Below, in pieces: positions 9,645-58,551 of a stretch of 64,000 nt of DNA (the first letter of the stretch is position 1; the number at the start of each line of letters is the position of its first letter). Origin of the DNA: Escherichia coli. GTDB lineage: Bacteria; Pseudomonadota; Gammaproteobacteria; Enterobacterales; Enterobacteriaceae. The notes under the pieces are model-generated. The model was not told where the DNA came from. It did no database searches and saw only the letters and a list, made by a program, of their open reading frames with translations. A program made the position numbers and the translations under genes. The stretch lies in the NCBI RefSeq assembly GCF_003334815.1, contig NZ_QOWO01000011.1; one strand, written 5' to 3'.

Positions 9645-12197
9645 TCAGAACAATTCCTGTGCCTCGCCATTATCGATAATGGTCGTTCCCACCTCGTGCA
9701 CTGCCTGTTGTGTCGGCTGCGTACCTTCGATGAAATACTCTTCGCGGCTGTTGCCACCATTAGCTAACTGCCCGGTGCTGCGATCGATATTCACCGTCAC
9801 AATACCCGGTGGCGGCGTCAGCGGCTGCTCCGGCACACCTTCAAGAACGGCTTTCATATAAGCGTCCCATGCAGGCTGGGCACTCTTGGCACCGCCTTCG
9901 TAACCTGAGATCTGATCTTTAATCGCTCCGGAAGCCGTTGTATGACCGAGATTACGACGGTGATCATCAAAGCCAATCCAGACCGAGGTCACAACGCCCG
10001 GACCGTAACCCGAGAACCACGCATCTTTCGAACTGTTAGTGGTCCCGGTTTTCCCGCCGATATCGCGACGCTGCAAATCACGACCTGCACGCCAGCCAGT
10101 ACCCTGCCAGCCTGGCTCACCAAAGATATTGGTGTTCAAAGCACTCTTAATCAGGAATGCCAGCGGAGTGTTGATGACGTGCGGTGCGTACTCCTGCGCG
10201 CCAGTCTTCGCCACTAACGCCTGATTTGCCTGCTCCAGCTGCGGCATTGGTACAGAAACATTCTGCTGCTCGCGGGAGATAGCGACATCTTCAACATCGT
10301 TATTTTCCAGCACGTTCGATTTCTGCGTATCACCGTAAATCACCGGAATATCGCATTCCGGGCAGGCTACTTTCGGTTTCGCTTCGAAAATCACGCCGCC
10401 CTGATCGTTTTCAATTTTGCTGATAAACCACGGGTCCACCAGGAAGCCGCCGTTCGCCATGACCGCGTAGCCGCGCGCCACCTGCATTGGGGTGAAGGAC
10501 GCTGAACCCAGCGCCAGCGATTCGGTGTGGACAATGTTTTGTGCCGGGAAGCCGAAGCGTTGCAGATATTCTGCAGCGTAGTCGACGCCCATCGCCCGCA
10601 TTGCGCGTACCATCACCACGTTTTTCGACTGACCCAGCCCCTGACGTAAGCGAATTGGACCAGCATACTGCGGTGGTGAGTTCTTCGGCTGCCAGTCAGA
10701 ACCGGCACTTGCATCCCAGCGAGAAATTGGCACATCGTTCAACATACTTGCCAGCGTCAGACCTTTATCCATCGCCGCGGTGTAGAGGAACGGTTTGATG
10801 TTGGAACCCACCTGACGCAGTGCCTGGGTGGCGCGGTTAAACTTGCTCTGATTGAAATCAAAGCCACCGACCAGCGCCATAACGGCACCGTTTTGCGGAT
10901 TGATCGACACCAGCGCCGAGTTCACTTCCGGCACTTGTGCCAGCCACCATGCATCGCCAACCTGACGAACCCAGATTTGCTGACCCGTTTGCAGAACATC
11001 GGTCACTTTACGCGGCGTCGGTCCTTGCTGAGTATCCGAACGGTAAGGACGCGCCCAGCGAACGCCTTCCATACTCAATGCGACGGTCGACCCGTCCGCC
11101 AGCATCGCCGTCGCTTGCTGAGGATTGGCGCTGGTGACTGCGGCAGGCAGCAGCGGACCATAGGTTGGCAGCGCCTTCAGCGTATCGGTAATCTTGTTGT
11201 TATCCCACGCCGACTCGCCCACTTTCCACAGCACATTTGCCGGGCCGCGATAGCCGTGGCGCATGTCGTAGTCCAGCACGTTATTACGTACCGCCTGCTG
11301 CGCGGCCTGCTGCACTTTGCGGGTGATGGTGGTGTAAATGCGATAACCGTCTTCATAGGCACTTTCGCCATAACGGTTATACATCTCCTGGCGCACCATT
11401 TCGCTCAGGTACGGCGCAGAGAAAGCAATCTCCGGCGCGTGATAGTTAGCGTTAATCGCCTCAGTGCGTGTCTGATCGAACTGTTGTTGGGTGATATACC
11501 CTTCATCCAGCATCCGCGACAGCACGACGTTACGCCGCGCGACGGCACGATCCATCGAGTAGAGCGGGTTGAAGGTGGAAGGCGCTTTCGGCAGCCCGGC
11601 TATCACCGCCATTTCGTTCAGCGTCAGTTGGTCGACCGTTTTTCCGAAATAGACTTGTGCCGCAGCACCGACACCATAGGCGCGGTAACCAAGGTAAATC
11701 TTGTTCAGATAAAGCTCGAGGATCTCGTCTTTCGTCAGCAGCTGTTCAATGCGAATCGCGAGGAAGACTTCCTTAATCTTACGCATCAGCGTGCGTTCTG
11801 GACTGAGGAAGAAGTTTCTCGCCAGCTGCTGGGTAATGGTACTTGCCCCTTGTGACGCGTGACCGGAGAACAGCGCCACGCTTGCTGCACGGAAGATCCC
11901 CACCGGGTCAACGCCGTGATGCTCGTAGAAGCGGCTGTCTTCTGTCGCGATAAAGGCTTTCACCATCTCCGGTGGGATTTGATCCAACGTAACCGGAATA
12001 CGACGTTTCTCACCGTATTGAGCAATCAGCTCGCCATCGGCGCTGTAAATCTGCATCGGAATTTGCAGGCGAACATCTTTTAATGTCGCCACATCCGGCA
12101 GTTGTGGCTCGATGTAGCGGTATAGGCCATAAATCGAGCCTGCTCCCAGCAGAATGCAACAGACTGCAAGGATCAAAAAATACTTTACGAACTTCAC
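9645..12197 (-). CDS. mrcA: Penicillin-binding protein 1A (bifunctional glycosyltransferase/transpeptidase), 850 aa
   Basis: ORF track 9645..12221(-); likely GTG start at 12195-12197 giving (M)KFVKYFLIL; glycosyltransferase motifs (EDSRFYEHHG) and transpeptidase domain. Confidence 0.95.
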   Translation of the reverse strand: MKFVKYFLILAVCCILLGAGSIYGLYRYIEPQLPDVATLKDVRLQIPMQIYSADGELIAQYGEKRRIPVTLDQIPPEMVKAFIATEDSRFYEHHGVDPVGIFRAASVALFSGHASQGASTITQQLARNFFLSPERTLMRKIKEVFLAIRIEQLLTKDEILELYLNKIYLGYRAYGVGAAAQVYFGKTVDQLTLNEMAVIAGLPKAPSTFNPLYSMDRAVARRNVVLSRMLDEGYITQQQFDQTRTEAINANYHAPEIAFSAPYLSEMVRQEMYNRYGESAYEDGYRIYTTITRKVQQAAQQAVRNNVLDYDMRHGYRGPANVLWKVGESAWDNNKITDTLKALPTYGPLLPAAVTSANPQQATAMLADGSTVALSMEGVRWARPYRSDTQQGPTPRKVTDVLQTGQQIWVRQVGDAWWLAQVPEVNSALVSINPQNGAVMALVGGFDFNQSKFNRATQALRQVGSNIKPFLYTAAMDKGLTLASMLNDVPISRWDASAGSDWQPKNSPPQYAGPIRLRQGLGQSKNVVMVRAMRAMGVDYAAEYLQRFGFPAQNIVHTESLALGSASFTPMQVARGYAVMANGGFLVDPWFISKIENDQGGVIFEAKPKVACPECDIPVIYGDTQKSNVLENNDVEDVAISREQQNVSVPMPQLEQANQALVAKTGAQEYAPHVINTPLAFLIKSALNTNIFGEPGWQGTGWRAGRDLQRRDIGGKTGTTNSSKDAWFSGYGPGVVTSVWIGFDDHRRNLGHTTASGAIKDQISGYEGGAKSAQPAWDAYMKAVLEGVPEQPLTPPPGIVTVNIDRSTGQLANGGNSREEYFIEGTQPTQQAVHEVGTTIIDNGEAQELF

Positions 12198-12316
12198 TGG
12201 AAATTTCCCATTTAGTTTCATTTGGGCAGTTTATAAACAAACGCGCGGTAGTATAAAGGCAAGCCAGACGCATTGATATACCCGTCAGAGTGACGGGTGA
12301 TAAGGAGATCATCACA

Positions 12317-13096
12317 ATGGCATTTAAGATCTGGCAAATTGGTTTGCATTTACAACAGCAAGAAGCGGTAGCGGTTGCGATCGTGCGGGGCGCAAAAGAA
12401 TGCTTTTTGCAACGCTGGTGGCGGTTGCCGCTGGAGAACGACATTATCAAAGATGGGCGGATTGTTGATGCGCAGCAGCTGGCTAAAACGTTGTTACCGT
12501 GGAGTCGCGAACTGCCGCAGCGTCATCACATTATGTTGGCGTTTCCCGCCAGTCGCACATTACAGCGGTCATTTCCGCGCCCGTCGATGTCCCTTGGTGA
12601 GCGGGAGCAAACGGCCTGGCTGTCAGGGACGATGGCCCGCGAGCTGGATATGGATCCGGACTCCCTGCGCTTCGATTACAGCGAAGACTCACTCAGTCCC
12701 GCCTATAACGTGACTGCCGCGCAAAGCAAAGAGCTGGCAACGCTGCTTACTCTGGCAGAAAGGTTGCGTGTTCATGTGAGCGCGATCACCCCGGATGCCA
12801 GTGCATTACAGCGATTCCTGCCTTTTTTACCTTCTCATCAGCAATGTCTGGCCTGGCGTGATAACGAACAGTGGCTGTGGGCGACGCGCTATAGCTGGGG
12901 GCGCAAACTGGCGGTGGGGATGACTAGCGCGAAGGAGCTGGCGGCAGCGTTATCCGTTGATCCCGAAAGCGTCGCGATATGTGGCGAAGGCGGATTTGAT
13001 CCCTGGGAGGCCGTTTCTGTTCGTCAGCCGCCGCTACCGCCGCCAGGTGGAGACTTTGCCATCGCGCTGGGGCTGGCGCTTGGGAAGGCGTACTGA
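12317..13096 (+). CDS. hofM: PilM-like type IV pilus/DNA-uptake assembly protein HofM, 259 aa
   Basis: ORF track 12290..13096 trimmed to MAFKIWQIGL (ATG 12317); SD aaggag upstream; first gene of hofMNOPQ. Confidence 0.9.
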   Translation: MAFKIWQIGLHLQQQEAVAVAIVRGAKECFLQRWWRLPLENDIIKDGRIVDAQQLAKTLLPWSRELPQRHHIMLAFPASRTLQRSFPRPSMSLGEREQTAWLSGTMARELDMDPDSLRFDYSEDSLSPAYNVTAAQSKELATLLTLAERLRVHVSAITPDASALQRFLPFLPSHQQCLAWRDNEQWLWATRYSWGRKLAVGMTSAKELAAALSVDPESVAICGEGGFDPWEAVSVRQPPLPPPGGDFAIALGLALGKAY

Positions 13097-13635
13097 TGAA
13101 CCCGCCAATTAATTTTTTGCCCTGGCGACAGCAACGCCGGACCGCTTTTCTGCGTTTCTGGTTGCTGATGTTCGTTGCGCCTCTGCTGCTGGCCGTCGGG
13201 ATAACGCTAATACTGCGTCTGACAGGCAGCGCCGAAGCGCGCATAGACGCAGTTTTGCTTCAGGCGGAACAACAACTCGCCCGCAGCTTACAGATAACGA
13301 AGCCACGTTTGCTGGAGCAACAGCAGTTACGCGAACAGCGTTCGCAACGGCAGCGCCAGCGACAATTTACCCGCGACTGGCAATCTGCGCTGGAAGCACT
13401 GGCGGCGCTTTTACCCGAGCACGCCTGGCTGACAACGATAAGCTGGCAGCAGGGAACGCTGGAGATCAAGGGGCTGACAACAAGCATTACCGCGTTAAAC
13501 GCACTAGAAACGTCACTCCGCCAGGATGCATCTTTTCATCTCAATCAGCGGGGAGCCACGCAGCAGGATGCGCAGGGACGCTGGCAATTTGAGTATCAGT
13601 TAACAAGGAAGGTTAGCGATGAACATGTTCTTTGA
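13096..13635 (+). CDS. hofN: PilN-like assembly protein HofN, 179 aa
   Basis: ORF track; start overlaps hofM stop (ATGA); single N-terminal TM helix. Confidence 0.9.
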   Translation: MNPPINFLPWRQQRRTAFLRFWLLMFVAPLLLAVGITLILRLTGSAEARIDAVLLQAEQQLARSLQITKPRLLEQQQLREQRSQRQRQRQFTRDWQSALEALAALLPEHAWLTTISWQQGTLEIKGLTTSITALNALETSLRQDASFHLNQRGATQQDAQGRWQFEYQLTRKVSDEHVL

Positions 13636-14059
13636 CTGGTGGTTCGCCACATCACCCCGCCTCCGCCAGCTTTGCTGGGCATTCTGGTTGCTGATGTTAG
13701 TTACGCTCATTTTTCTGTCATCGACACACCATGAAGAGCGCGACGCATTAATTCGACTACGGGCAAGTCATCACCAGCAGTGGGCCGCACTGTATCGCCT
13801 GGTAGACACCACTCCCTTCAGCGAGGAAAAAACGCTGCCCTTTTCGCCACTGGATTTTCAGTTATCCGGCGCGCAACTGGTTTCCTGGCATCCATCCGCG
13901 CAGGGAGGCGAGTTGGCGTTGAAAACGCTGTGGGAAGCAGTGCCGTCGGCATTTACACGGCTGGCAGAGCGCAACGTCAGCGTGAGCCGTTTTTCGTTAA
14001 GCGTGGAAGGTGATGATCTTTTGTTCACGCTACAACTGGAGACGCCGCATGAGGGTTAA
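13619..14059 (+). CDS. hofO: PilO-like assembly protein HofO, 146 aa
   Basis: ORF track; overlaps hofN 3' end; N-terminal TM helix. Confidence 0.88.
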   Translation: MNMFFDWWFATSPRLRQLCWAFWLLMLVTLIFLSSTHHEERDALIRLRASHHQQWAALYRLVDTTPFSEEKTLPFSPLDFQLSGAQLVSWHPSAQGGELALKTLWEAVPSAFTRLAERNVSVSRFSLSVEGDDLLFTLQLETPHEG

Positions 14060-14453
14060 ACGCTGGTTGTTGGCAGGTATTGCATTGTGCCTTTTAACCG
14101 GTATGCGTGACCCTTTTAAACCGCCGGAAGATCTATGCCGGATTAGCGAACTTAGCCAGTGGCGCTATCAGGGGATGGTAGGGCGAGGCGAGCGCATCAT
14201 CGGTGTAATAAAAGACGGGCAAAAGAAATGGCGACGGGTGCAGCAAAACGATGTGCTGGAAAACGGCTGGACAATTTTACAGCTGACGCCAGACGTACTA
14301 ACGCTGGGTACCGGGACAAACTGCGAACCGCCACAATGGTTGTGGCAACGGCAAGGAGATACAAATGAAGCAATGGATAGCCGCACTACTGTTGATGCTG
14401 ATACCCGGCGTACAGGCGGCAAAGCCGCAAAAAGTGACGCTGATGGTGGATGA
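14049..14453 (+). CDS. hofP: PilP-like lipoprotein HofP, 134 aa
   Basis: ORF track 14010..14453 trimmed to MRVKRWLLAGIALCLLTGMRDPF (ATG 14049); signal peptide with lipobox-like LLTG. Confidence 0.85.
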   Translation: MRVKRWLLAGIALCLLTGMRDPFKPPEDLCRISELSQWRYQGMVGRGERIIGVIKDGQKKWRRVQQNDVLENGWTILQLTPDVLTLGTGTNCEPPQWLWQRQGDTNEAMDSRTTVDADTRRTGGKAAKSDADGG

Positions 14454-15603
14454 CGTTCCGGTAGCTCAGGTGTTGCAGGCGCTGGCTGAACAGGAGAAGT
14501 TGAACCTGGTCGTGTCGCCAGACGTCAGCGGTACGGTGTCGTTACATCTAACAGATGTTCCCTGGAAGCAGGCACTACAAACTGTAGTGAAAAGCGCCGG
14601 ACTGATAACGCGGCAGGAAGGCAACATTCTCTCAGTGCATTCCATTGCCTGGCAGAATAACAATATCGCCCGCCAGGAGGCGGAGCAGGCGCGGGCGCAG
14701 GCAAATCTGCCGCTGGAAAATCGCAGTATAACCCTGCAATACGCCGACGCGGGAGAACTGGCGAAAGCGGGGGAGAAGCTACTGAGTGCCAAAGGGAGTA
14801 TGACCGTCGATAAACGCACCAATCGCCTTTTGCTACGAGATAACAAAACGGCGTTAAGCGCGCTTGAACAGTGGGTAGCGCAAATGGATCTGCCGGTCGG
14901 GCAGGTTGAGCTGTCGGCGCATATTGTCACCATTAATGAAAAAAGTTTGCGTGAGTTAGGCGTGAAATGGACGCTGGCCGATGCGCAACACGCTGGTGGC
15001 GTTGGGCAAGTCACCACGCTTGGTAGCGACCTCTCCGTAGCGACGGCGACAACGCATGTCGGTTTTAACATTGGGCGCATCAACGGACGCTTGCTGGATC
15101 TTGAGCTTTCCGCGCTCGAACAAAAACAGCAGCTGGATATTATCGCCAGTCCGCGTCTGCTGGCCTCACATCTTCAGCCTGCCAGCATTAAACAGGGGAG
15201 CGAAATTCCATATCAGGTTTCCAGCGGGGAAAGTGGCGCGACGTCGGTGGAATTTAAAGAGGCCGTCCTGGGGATGGAGGTCACGCCCACGGTGTTACAA
15301 AAAGGTCGCATCCGGCTGAAATTACACATCAGCCAGAACGTTCCGGGGCAGGTGCTACAGCAGGCCGATGGCGAAGTGCTGGCGATTGATAAGCAGGAGA
15401 TCGAAACGCAGGTCGAGGTCAAAAGCGGAGAAACGTTGGCGCTGGGCGGCATTTTTACCCGTAAAAATAAATCGGGTCAGGATAGCGTACCGTTGCTTGG
15501 CGACATTCCCTGGTTCGGGCAATTATTTCGTCATGACGGAAAAGAAGATGAACGACGCGAGTTAGTGGTGTTTATCACGCCACGACTGGTTTCCAGTGAG
15601 TAA
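14365..15603 (+). CDS. hofQ: Secretin (PilQ/ComE-like outer membrane channel) HofQ, 412 aa
   Basis: ORF track; signal peptide MKQWIAALLLMLIPGVQA; conserved secretin C-terminal domain (PLLGDIPWFGQLFR). Confidence 0.93.
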   Translation: MKQWIAALLLMLIPGVQAAKPQKVTLMVDDVPVAQVLQALAEQEKLNLVVSPDVSGTVSLHLTDVPWKQALQTVVKSAGLITRQEGNILSVHSIAWQNNNIARQEAEQARAQANLPLENRSITLQYADAGELAKAGEKLLSAKGSMTVDKRTNRLLLRDNKTALSALEQWVAQMDLPVGQVELSAHIVTINEKSLRELGVKWTLADAQHAGGVGQVTTLGSDLSVATATTHVGFNIGRINGRLLDLELSALEQKQQLDIIASPRLLASHLQPASIKQGSEIPYQVSSGESGATSVEFKEAVLGMEVTPTVLQKGRIRLKLHISQNVPGQVLQQADGEVLAIDKQEIETQVEVKSGETLALGGIFTRKNKSGQDSVPLLGDIPWFGQLFRHDGKEDERRELVVFITPRLVSSE

Positions 15604-48315: not shown

Positions 48316-48320
48316 CGGGG

Positions 48321-48353
48321 GAAACAAAATGGCGCGCTACCAGGTAACGCGCC
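48321..48353 (-). terminator. crp intrinsic terminator
   Basis: Stem ggcgcg / cgcgcc (48331-48353) immediately 3' of the crp stop, followed on the minus strand by attttgttt. Confidence 0.7.
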
Positions 48354-48365
48354 ACTCCGACGGGA

Positions 48366-48998
48366 TTAACGAGTGCCGTAAACGACGATGGTTTTACCGT
48401 GTGCGGAGATCAGGTTCTGATCTTCCAGCATCTTCAGAATGCGTCCCACGGTTTCACGAGAACAGCCGACAATCTGACCAATTTCCTGACGGGTAATTTT
48501 GATTTGCATACCGTCCGGGTGAGTCATAGCGTCTGGTTGTTTTGCCAGATTCAGCAGAGTCTGTGCAATGCGGCCCGTCACGTCGAGGAACGCCAGGTTG
48601 CCCACTTTCTCTGAAGTGACTTGCAGACGACGCGCCATCTGTGCAGACAAACGCATCAGAATGTCCGGGTTTACCTGAATCAATTGGCGAAATTTTTTGT
48701 ACGAAATTTCAGCCACTTCACAGGCGGTTTTCGCACGTACCCATGCGCTACGTTCCTGGCCCTCTTCAAACAGGCCCAGTTCGCCAATAAAATCACCCTG
48801 ATTCAGATAGGAGAGGATCATTTCTTTACCCTCTTCGTCTTTGATCAGCACTGCCACAGAGCCTTTAACGATGTAGTACAGCGTTTCCGCTTTTTCACCC
48901 TGGTGAATAAGCGTGCTCTTGGATGGGTACTTATGAATGTGGCAATGAGACAAGAACCATTCGAGAGTCGGGTCTGTTTGCGGTTTGCCAAGCACCAT
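48366..48998 (-). CDS. crp: cAMP receptor protein (catabolite activator), 210 aa
   Basis: ORF track; recognised as CRP; [14 protein letters not shown]. Confidence 0.98.
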
Positions 48999-50900: not shown

Positions 50901-51916
50901 GATTTCGCCTCCAGATACGTTGTTAACCAGTCAGGAATGCGTGACTCCAGCCACATTTGCGGATGAAGTAATGTACCGCCAATAAAGCCAACATGACCGC
51001 CATGTTCAGTCAGTTGATACTCCACCTGCGGGGGGAGACTTTCCGGTTTCGGGATCACCTGATGATCCATAAACGGATCGTCTTTGGCGTGAATAATCAG
51101 CGTCGGTTTGGCGATCCGGTTCAGCATCGGCATGGCGCTACACTGACGATAATAGTCGATAGCGTCGGCGTAGCCGTGAATTCTGGCGGTGATGAGATCG
51201 TCAAATTCACGGATGCGACGTACCGATTTTAACTGCGCGAGATTAATCGGCAGCGTTCCGGGGTAGGCTGCCAGCTTGCGCGCGGCATTGGCTTTTAACA
51301 GGTTCAGCAAGTAACGCTGATAAACGCGGGAAAAGCCCTTTTCCATATGATAGCTACAGGCTTCCAGCATAAACGGCGCAGAGACAATCACCGCCGCATC
51401 AACCGGGAGATCATTGCCTTCCTTTGCCAGCAAACAGGCCAGCATATTACCGCCGAGCGAATAGCCGACGGCAGCCGTTGGCGCATGACCAAATTCGCGT
51501 TGCAGCCAGCGTAAAAACCAACTGGCGTCTTCGGTTTCGCCCGAATGGTAAATGCGGTGCATACGGTTTGGTTCACCGCTGCATCCGCGAAAATGCATCA
51601 CCACGCCCAGCCAGCCGCGCTTTTGCGCCGCCTCAACCAGACCGTGGGCGTAAGGGCTGTTGAGACTGCCTTCCAGCCCGTGAAACACCACCAGACGAGG
51701 TTTATGTTGCGCCTGTGCAGGGTTTTCACTCCACGCAAGATCGACAAAATCGCCGTCGGGCAACTCCAGCCGCTGCCAGTACGGGGTGAATTTCACCTGA
51801 CGACGAAACAGACGCGGCAGCATGGTTTGCAGATGACAATTGCTAAAGCCGCGCATGGGGATGAATTCAGCACTGCTGCTGAATTCATTGGCATCGGTCG
51901 TCGTTATCTGCGCCAT
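50894..51916 (-). CDS. yheT: Alpha/beta-hydrolase YheT, 340 aa
   Basis: ORF track; nucleophile-elbow-type GYSLGG motif. Confidence 0.9.
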
Positions 51917-58511: not shown

Positions 58512-58520
58512 GCATTAAGA

Positions 58521-58551
58521 ACCGCCGCCTGACCAGGCGGCGGTTTTTTTA
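58521..58551 (+). terminator. fkpA intrinsic terminator
   Basis: ACCGCCGCCtgaccaGGCGGCGGT followed by TTTTTTT. Confidence 0.85.

Follow-up and report, generated by a model that had tools for sequence, protein, structure and literature searches.

The 64,000-nucleotide stretch analysed here (the window) is E. coli chromosome, in which hofMNOPQ is present intact and annotated. The five genes follow each other on the + strand: hofM (12317-13096, 259 aa), hofN (13096-13635, 179 aa, with a PilN domain), hofO (13619-14059, 146 aa), hofP (14049-14453, 134 aa, Pfam HofP) and hofQ (14365-15603, 412 aa, a full-length secretin of the PilQ subfamily). All five are complete RefSeq coding sequences and all junctions between them overlap in the RefSeq coordinates, which bears out the first-pass annotation of an intact operon with coupled starts. 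Divergent from hofM lies mrcA (PBP1a; 9645-12197, - strand), and this arrangement of five co-oriented, overlapping genes divergent from ponA/mrcA recurs in 80 Enterobacterales species. HofQ matched NF007851 over residues 1-412 of 412 with 855 bits (cutoff 598) and TIGR02515 PilQ with 449 bits (cutoff 284), and HofN matched PF05137 PilN with E = 3.1e-9. For HofM the matches to PilM_2 (E = 0.047) and T2SSL (E = 0.0024) were both weak and none was found among the NCBIfam profiles; the position of hofM and the synteny fit PilM. The first 50 kb of the window contain no annotated pilin or ATPase gene, in line with the earlier suggestion that the system is split and these genes lie elsewhere. The operon had also been called cryptic under laboratory conditions, and published work agrees, since hofMNOPQ is poorly expressed there unless Sxy is induced (PMC1635313, PMC3330819). 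Induction of yrfD (= hofM) was 16-fold and dependent on both Sxy and CRP, and CRP-S/Sxy control of such operons is a property of the Enterobacteriaceae-Pasteurellaceae-Vibrionaceae clade (PMC1635313).

Two transcription start sites have been reported for hofM. The proximal one at 12261 (+), 56 nt 5' of the ATG, comes from Cappable-seq of EDL933 (PMC10469882, Table S5), and its likely -10 element, TAGTAT at 12249-12254, was assigned by inspection. The distal one at 12140 (+), 177 nt 5' of the ATG, is the RegulonDB value for MG1655; it lies within the mrcA coding sequence and inside a fragment (12041-12166) that showed weak CRP binding by EMSA and contains two predicted CRP-S (Sxy-dependent) sites (PMC1635313). 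The sequence TGCAT-N6-TTGCA at 12052-12067 corresponds to the CRP-S site reported at -246 (PMC1635313); a CRP-S pattern scan of the whole window gave fewer matches than shuffled sequence and is useful only for placing this site. By published distances, mrcA starts at 12242 and 12221 (-), 45 and 24 nt 5' of its GTG at 12197. The ROSE and Shigella M90T start site supplements contain no hofM or mrcA entries.

The intergenic region contains a conserved 42-bp block (12224-12265) with 94.5% mean column identity over 80 species. Within it the -10 hexamer of hofM overlaps that of mrcA on the opposite strand (TATACT, the reverse complement of 12250-12255), and both hexamers lie between the divergent starts, 12242 (-) and 12261 (+), which are separated by 19 nt. 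Bidirectional sigma-70 promoters with a shared -10 region were reportedly described by Warman et al. in 2021. In this promoter class, defined by the shared -10 region, the commonest spacing is 18 bp (PMC12825309). The block is a bidirectional mrcA/hofM promoter; it is more striking than the neighbouring repeat and is the truly constrained sequence of the region.

The repeat had been described as a perfect 7-3-7 inverted repeat abutting the ribosome binding site of hofM. The segment 12281-12297 indeed reads cccgtca-gag-tgacggg, and each arm is in fact one base longer, giving a perfect 8-3-8 repeat at 12280-12298 (+), ACCCGTCA-gag-TGACGGGT, which corresponds to +20 to +38 of the short hofM leader. 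The gap to the Shine-Dalgarno (SD) sequence AAGGAG (12302-12307, + strand, 9 nt before the ATG at 12317) is about 3 nt, the 3' arm stopping 2-3 nt short of it, and the SD itself sits within the motif GATAAGGAG, which is conserved across most Enterobacterales. Both reported hofM starts lie upstream of the repeat and it is therefore transcribed. Of 5427 E. coli records, 5040 carry an identical 65-nt sequence around the repeat. Tandem repeats were not found, and Rfam gave nothing at the repeat, its only hit being a sub-threshold asponA match at 12043-12068 (E = 0.063, 14.7 bits, gathering score 113). An intrinsic terminator was rejected: there is no terminator-like site in 11900-12600 and no U tract after the stem, where the + strand continues with GAUAAGGAG and the - strand with UAUAUCAAUG.

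Folded as RNA, the repeat gives a 9-bp stem that includes a closing U12279.G12299 pair and carries a GAG triloop. The predicted energy of the hairpin is -12.8 kcal/mol, and the 25-nt segment has a z-score of -4.4 against its own shuffles; a 90-nt fold is not significant (z = -1.7). In the predicted ensembles the stem pairs have probabilities of 0.9-1.0 in both leaders, and for each transcript the MFE structure and the centroid structure both contain the stem. A repressor hairpin sequestering the SD was rejected, as the stem ends at 12298/12299 and leaves the SD outside, with predicted mean unpaired probabilities of 0.80 in the short and 0.65 in the long leader. The only pairing of the AUG is in another helix of the short leader, predicted between CAUUG (12271-12275) and CAAUG (12315-12319); among the orthologues, Escherichia and Citrobacter alone are predicted to form it. 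When the left arm was scrambled in silico, AUG accessibility in the short leader rose from about 0.2 to 0.44-0.96. Since the SD lies outside the stem and is predicted to be mostly unpaired, any effect of the hairpin on initiation would be indirect.

For the comparison across Enterobacterales, about 200 orthologous loci (196 leaders, no Salmonella locus among them) were used. Escherichia, Citrobacter, Enterobacter, Kluyvera and their relatives have a hairpin at this position, and some of the changes between them are compensatory; the hairpins are strong in Escherichia and Citrobacter (-9 to -13 kcal/mol) and moderate in Enterobacter, Kluyvera and Klebsiella-like orthologues (-7 to -11 kcal/mol), where the register sometimes differs. 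A significant hairpin is missing in about half of the lineages, namely Serratia, Rahnella, Erwinia, most Pantoea, Buttiauxella, Leclercia and Kosakonia. The 3' arm has been lost in one Citrobacter genome (GCA_005406305.1), and about 20 of the 196 leaders carry 7-315 nt inserted exactly at the repeat. Among the orthologues the arms change in sequence and are 3-9 nt apart. One and the same pair is found as C-G, U.G and U-A among Escherichia and Citrobacter species, and in an E. albertii variant as well as in one E. coli polymorphism a pair is converted to U.G and not broken. Local folds of 98 unique orthologous segments had a mean z of -1.24, with 40% below -1.64. In 85 unique arm pairs, 56.2% of the cells were paired (52.2 +/- 1.2 in shuffles, reached in 0 of 500) and 91 cells had changes on both sides (59 in shuffles, 0 of 500), against a shuffle control that is inflated by the relatedness of the sequences. 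The covariation score exceeded that of every slid register. Strand asymmetry was not seen, neither in G.U versus A.C pairs nor in folding energies of the + and - strands (Wilcoxon p = 0.48), in a test that cannot separate RNA-level from DNA-level constraint.

Our preferred explanation, held with a little more belief than doubt, is that the repeat is the DNA image of a weakly constrained stem-loop in the hofM 5' UTR, which may modestly damp or insulate translation initiation and is no operator. Of the two options proposed by the first-pass annotation, operator or RNA hairpin, it is thus the hairpin that is favoured, being transcribed from both reported starts and having a predicted formation probability near 1. 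The repeat lies within two leaders, the 56-nt leader from the bidirectional promoter and the 177-nt leader with its start close to the CRP-S sites, and in both the predicted stem fills the ribosome standby region directly 5' of an SD that is predicted to stay single-stranded. From this position it would most likely lower or buffer initiation modestly and not act as a switch. In the short leader the stem may in addition favour the flanking helix that pairs the start codon. It could thereby limit HofM synthesis from a transcript that is a constitutive by-product of the mrcA promoter, and it could insulate the ribosome binding site from two different upstream leaders. Selection on such a hairpin would be weak and restricted to some lineages. 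The repeat sits in the one part of the region that is poorly conserved, and it looks like an ordinary feature that fine-tunes expression at most.

An unlikely explanation, and still one to be taken seriously, is that the hairpin has no function and was left behind, or arose as a by-product, through the activity of an ERIC (IRU/RU-1) miniature transposon; it would be transcribed and folded and not be under selection. Such elements are said to have been described by Hulton (1991), Sharples and Lloyd (1990) and De Gregorio (2005). ERIC/IRU/RU-1 sequences are miniature inverted-repeat elements of enterobacteria (Delihas, PMC2759123, PMC2229807). According to this explanation TATACCC-GTCAgagTGAC-GGGTgATA would be a collapsed element consisting of little more than its two terminal inverted repeats, and the TA-rich junction between promoter and SD would be a hot spot for ERIC insertion. 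The left end, TATACCCGTCA (12277-12287, + strand), agrees with the start of the E. coli ERIC/RU-1 consensus at 11 of 11 nt, and on the right GGGTgATA is similar to the opposite 7-bp terminus, GGGTATA, but has one extra base. In the 1.55 Mb searched, the 11-mer of the left end was counted 23 times, in 22 cases at the hofM site. ERIC-type elements start at the exact coordinate in Pantoea spp. (L040, L042, L059, L063, L079), in L053, where three copies stand in tandem, and in L201, a metagenome contig resembling Pluralibacter; ERIC insertions split the site in at least three lineages, and shorter derivatives are found there too, such as the 6-bp stub hairpin TATACCCGAgatgagtTCGGGTTAA in L064. That no other part of the intergenic region is as poorly conserved as the repeat segment also suits a relic.

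However, in L201 the full ERIC adjoins a homologue of the hairpin segment and does not replace it, and the empty sites in L028 and L037 read TATAGCTCGAATGGG. The left arm of E. coli thus descends from a pre-existing TATAGCCGTCA-type sequence, which is common to Enterobacter, Kluyvera and others and is only one base off ERIC. The right arm TGAC matches the ancestral TGACGATAAGGAG and not ERIC. Furthermore, the leader from the conserved block to the ATG (about 52 nt) is as long as in lineages without ERIC-like sequence, which would not be expected after insertion and collapse. A full ERIC/IRU MITE, an imperfect palindrome of about 127 bp with a consensus body, was rejected, as the body is absent at the hofM site; BLAST with the ERIC consensus gave no match there and did match in L040, L042, L053, L059, L063 and L079. 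Other mini-palindromes of the ERIC-stub type were absent from the 1.55 Mb, a result that is uninformative because this sequence is mostly coding.

Even less probable, in our view, is that the palindrome arose by chance in the one spacer of the region that is free of constraint, with neither ERIC ancestry nor a role, and that the apparent structural conservation reflects shared descent and GC-rich composition. We counted perfect stems of at least 8 bp with loops of 3-8 nt over the whole window and found 37 entries (about 22 distinct places), compared with 6.7 +/- 3.2 in Markov shuffles; a single perfect 8-bp repeat is unremarkable window-wide, since about seven are expected by chance per 64 kb. 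The stem core is invariant within Escherichia and Citrobacter and therefore carries no covariation information, and the missing strand asymmetry and the many lineages without a hairpin also speak for chance. On the other hand, only about 0.013 such repeats are expected within the 120-bp intergenic region (arithmetic from the shuffle count), hairpins of differing sequence and register recur at one spot in several genera, and both the negative z-scores of the orthologous folds and the excess of double changes over all 500 shuffles speak against chance.

We give little credence to a more elaborate scheme, in which a domesticated ERIC stub would serve as an isoform-specific translational gate and only the induced transcript would yield the DNA-uptake machine: in the 56-nt constitutive leader the hairpin would nucleate the flanking helix that masks the hofM start codon, and in the long, Sxy/CRP-S-driven leader alternative pairing would free it. 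Very improbable, finally, is a palindromic operator of a dimeric DNA-binding protein that represses hofM as a roadblock at +29 or acts on the divergent mrcA promoter, for which the perfect dyad symmetry and the position (about -38 to -56 of the mrcA start 12242, fitting a roadblock or an upstream activator site) would speak. Against it argue the variable loop length and the differing arms among close relatives. Many lineages, moreover, lack the repeat or have it interrupted, with 20-300 nt inserted in whole lineages, at a distance of only 15 bp from a core promoter that is 94% conserved, and a search of the window that allowed up to 3 mismatches gave no further copy. Nor is the repeat a CRP or CRP-S site (3-nt spacing and a core other than the TGCGA-N6-TCGCA of the 22-bp site, with the published sites in 12041-12166).

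If the leader stem-loop does damp translation of the constitutive hofM transcript, it would help to explain why the competence gene homologues of E. coli look silent, a silence that is notable as RNA polymerase fires toward hofM from the mrcA promoter. Mutations in the arms would then be a simple handle to raise HofMNOPQ in studies of DNA uptake. The practical value of the analysis is mostly negative, the repeat being very probably no operator, and no new type of element. Besides, the hofM leader offers a clear case from nature in which ERIC has inserted repeatedly at one TA, with a conserved promoter on one side and a conserved ribosome binding site on the other.

The gene order and the divergent neighbour (mrcA = ponA) of hofMNOPQ are the same as for comABCDE of H. 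influenzae and pilMNOPQ of P. aeruginosa (PMC1635313). Compared with these systems, E. coli HofM is short (259 aa) and matches PilM_2 only marginally, HofO and HofP each have a family of their own, and a leader hairpin like that of hofM has not been reported for the other two. Structured standby sites and upstream leader hairpins tune translation initiation (de Smit and van Duin; Espah Borujeni, Channarasappa and Salis 2014). As in those systems, hofM has a stable stem-loop directly 5' of a free SD, in the region contacted by the 30S subunit, whereas how large an effect it has in hofM, and even in which direction, is inferred. Stabilisers of the ompA type are stable hairpins at the 5' end of an mRNA. 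A stable hairpin in the 5' leader is likewise present in hofM, but its stem begins at +19/+20 of the short leader and is thus preceded by 19 nt, or by 140 nt in the long leader, that are unpaired or otherwise folded; the hairpin is not 5'-terminal, and a stabiliser of this kind was rejected. With ERIC elements the repeat shares the 11-nt terminus, the TA flanks, a transcribed intergenic location and the fold into an RNA hairpin, but it measures 19-25 bp and not about 127 bp and has no element body. The mrcA/hofM promoter, a pair not named in PMC12825309, falls within the definition of bidirectional sigma-70 promoters given there, and with 94% over 80 species it is conserved to a degree that is unusual among promoters.

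The inverted repeat at 12280-12298, between the hofM promoter and the hofM Shine-Dalgarno sequence (SD), is best explained as a transcribed stem-loop of the 5' UTR that is weakly constrained and is not an operator. It reads ACCCGTCA gag TGACGGGT and has perfect 8-bp arms; the 7-3-7 repeat before the SD that the first-pass annotation had described is thus there as given, with each arm extending by one further base. It ends 3 nt before the SD (AAGGAG) and gains a closing U.G pair as RNA, and the 25-nt hairpin segment folds with -12.8 kcal/mol (z = -4.4 against shuffles). Taken alone, a perfect stem of 8 bp is nothing special: the window has 37 entries of this kind, mostly terminators, and Markov shuffles of the window have 6.7 +/- 3.2. 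Significance must rest on position and conservation. The window also contains longer perfect inverted repeats with stems of 11-13 bp (30286-30316, 31131-31160, 51861-51888 and 58520-58545), some of which fall inside or beside genes (the end of frlR, frlD and others). An in-frame GTG inside the hairpin (12290-12316) would extend hofM by 9 codons; located within the stem and lacking an SD, it is unlikely to serve as a start.

According to published start sites, the repeat is transcribed. Published hofM starts lie 177 nt before the start codon in MG1655 (the RegulonDB 10.5 value) and 56 nt before it in EDL933 (Cappable-seq), and mrcA starts lie at 45 nt in both strains and at 24 nt in EDL933 (PMC10469882 Table S5, with the column order inferred from the arithmetic of its difference column). 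Converted to window coordinates, these are 12140 and 12261 for hofM and 12242 and 12221 for mrcA. Both hofM starts are upstream of the repeat and 12258-12322 is identical in O157:H7 genomes, so the repeat occupies +20 to +38 of the short leader, and it lies well within the long one.

The long-leader start at 12140 falls within a 126-bp fragment, mapped via the published primers to 12041-12166, for which weak CRP binding was shown and two CRP-S sites (Sxy-dependent CRP sites) were predicted; yrfD, the former name of hofM, was induced 16-fold in dependence on Sxy and CRP (Cameron and Redfield, PMC1635313). The gene for CRP, the activator required to induce hofM, is located in the same 64-kb window (48316-48948). 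Any distal hofM transcript must be antisense to the 5' end of mrcA, and Rfam gave a sub-threshold match to asponA, an RNA antisense to ponA (12043-12068, E = 0.063), overlapping the CRP-S site predicted at -246. The first 15 mrcA codons (12153-12197) are near-invariant in 80 species including synonymous positions, with many columns at 100%. They lie just downstream of the hofM start at 12140 and overlap the end of the CRP-S fragment, which suggests a combined coding and regulatory constraint.

Hairpin conservation was compared in 98 unique orthologous segments out of 80 genomes and 120 metagenome contigs. Hairpins are strong (-9 to -13 kcal/mol) in Escherichia and most Citrobacter and moderate (-7 to -11), sometimes in a different register, in Enterobacter, Lelliottia, Kluyvera, Superficieibacter and Klebsiella-like sequences; some Pantoea have short 4-5 bp stems around a U-rich loop, and among these segments none was found in Serratia, Rahnella, Erwinia, Buttiauxella, Leclercia and Kosakonia. 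The mean z of local folds was -1.24, with 40% of the segments below -1.64, and stability showed no strand asymmetry (p = 0.48). Within Escherichia and Citrobacter, stem pair 7 is C-G, U.G or U-A by species, pair 8 is A-U, G-C or a mismatch, and pairs are turned into U.G in E. albertii and by one E. coli polymorphism. When only the arms were aligned, with the conserved flanks as anchors, paired cells (56.2% vs 52.2 +/- 1.2), double changes (91 vs 59) and the covariation score (0.236 vs 0.189) were reached by none of 500 shuffles, a control that is inflated by relatedness according to a warning of the tool; all three values were above those of almost all slid registers. One Citrobacter genome (GCA_005406305.1, CP040234.1) keeps the left arm (TACCCGTAA) but has CGACCATTG as right arm and has lost the hairpin, and its hofM is intact (259 aa). 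We read these comparisons as a structural constraint that is real but weak and restricted to certain lineages.

The hairpin might also be the remnant of a collapsed ERIC (IRU/RU-1), a miniature inverted-repeat transposable element of enterobacteria, which we regard as possible but unlikely. The stretch 12277-12287, TATACCCGTCA, is identical to the ERIC/RU-1 consensus of E. coli (Delihas) over its initial 11 nt, and GGGTgATA, on the right side, resembles the opposite ERIC terminus. Furthermore, elements with ERIC termini start exactly at 12277/12278 in several Pantoea, in locus L053, which has three ERIC-type copies in tandem, and in L201, a Pluralibacter-like contig, and shortened derivatives are present in L046, L052, L056, L062 and L064. 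However, L201 carries a full ERIC beside a retained homologue of the hairpin segment, the matching empty sites being TATAGCTCGAATGGG; the E. coli left arm is one base off TATAGCCGTCA, which is common to many ERIC-free genera; and the leader is as long as in lineages without ERIC-like sequence. ERIC-type elements, as one to three copies or shortened, recur at one TA in at least three lineages (insertions at 12277/12278 in orthologous loci L040, L042, L046, L052, L053, L056, L059, L062, L063, L064, L067, L079, L138, L166, L183 and L201), and a non-ERIC insertion of ~95 nt starting with TATACCCCCACGGGGCGGCTTGCTGGCGC is found at the equivalent of 12280 in three metagenome contigs of a Klebsiella/Raoultella-like lineage (L151, L190 and L196). 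These insertions mark the point where the conserved promoter meets the conserved ribosome-binding site as a hot spot for insertion, probably for the reason that no other TA of the region is tolerant.

Of the two mechanisms offered at first for the repeat, the RNA hairpin is favoured, since it is transcribed and its stem is predicted in both leaders, and the operator is not supported. Arm spacing (3-9 nt) and arm sequences vary among close relatives, many genera lack the repeat despite a nearly invariant promoter at a distance of 15 bp, and no related copy was found elsewhere in the window. The repeat lies at about -38 to -56 relative to the mrcA start at 12242, but in lineages with insertions at 12277/78 all sequence past about -36 is displaced from mrcA, which makes an important mrcA site at the repeat unlikely.

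The stem of the transcribed hairpin is present in the MFE and centroid structures of both leaders, with pair probabilities of 0.9-1.0. Action by sequestering the SD was rejected, as the SD is mostly unpaired in the predicted ensembles (mean unpaired probability 0.80 in the short and 0.65 in the long leader). In the predicted ensemble of the short leader the start codon is paired (unpaired probability about 0.2) by a helix of CAUUG (12271-75) with CAAUG (12315-19) that flanks the hairpin, and scrambling the left arm in silico raised AUG accessibility to 0.44-0.96. This start-codon pairing is a weak prediction: the 90-nt fold has a z of only -1.7 and, by inspection of the alignment, the helix is complementary in Escherichia and Citrobacter only. 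Most likely, the hairpin would modestly damp or insulate translation initiation at the standby region. The repeat is a fresh example of a familiar type of feature.

Several E. coli chromosomes share the surrounding 3.6 kb at 100% identity, and 5426 of 5426 complete E. coli genomes match it over at least 80% of its length. According to RefSeq, mrcA (GTG at 12197, minus strand) diverges from hofM (12317-13096), which is followed by hofN (13096-13635, with a PilN domain), hofO (13619-14059), hofP (14049-14453, matching its own Pfam family), hofQ (14365-15603, a full-length secretin of the PilQ subfamily) and then aroK, aroB, damX and dam. None of the five hof genes carries a pseudogene flag and every junction overlaps, in agreement with the intact operon with coupled starts described in the first-pass annotation. 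Its statement that the window has no pilin or ATPase genes likewise holds for the annotation of the first 50 kb. This operon description is correct and already textbook knowledge. HofM, though annotated as the PilM counterpart, matched no NCBIfam model and gave marginal Pfam matches (T2SSL, E = 0.0024; PilM_2, E = 0.047). It evolves very fast (12317-13093; 26-67% identity in Enterobacterales), and the adjoining MrcA is highly conserved.

Two by-products of the analysis are more noteworthy than the repeat: the ERIC hot spot and the bidirectional mrcA/hofM promoter, which is ultra-conserved. Aligned across 80 Enterobacterales species, the intergenic region of mrcA and hofM has a nearly constant length of ~120 bp, with HofM identity down to 26-30%. 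Its 42-bp non-coding block GGGCAGTTTATAAACAAACGCGCGGTAGTATAAAGGCAAGCC (12224-12265) has a mean column identity of 94.5%, equal to that of the initial 60 coding nt of mrcA. Promoter elements alone do not account for the invariant CGCGCGG that separates its two TATA-like hexamers. Between this block and the hairpin lies another conserved motif, GCATTGATA (12270-12278); on the minus strand it is located at -28 to -36 of mrcA P1 but makes a poor -35 hexamer. Read on the plus strand, its TTGATA is a good -35 without a matching -10, and in E. coli the CAUUG of the motif can pair with the region of the hofM start codon. The mapped starts make the 42-bp block a bidirectional promoter: the -10 hexamers of hofM (TAGTAT, 12249-54) and mrcA (TATACT, reverse complement of 12250-55) overlap and the divergent starts are 19 nt apart. 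Bidirectional promoters with this architecture were described by Warman and colleagues, with 18 bp as the commonest start spacing (PMC12825309). A housekeeping promoter thus yields the short hofM transcript as its mirror product.
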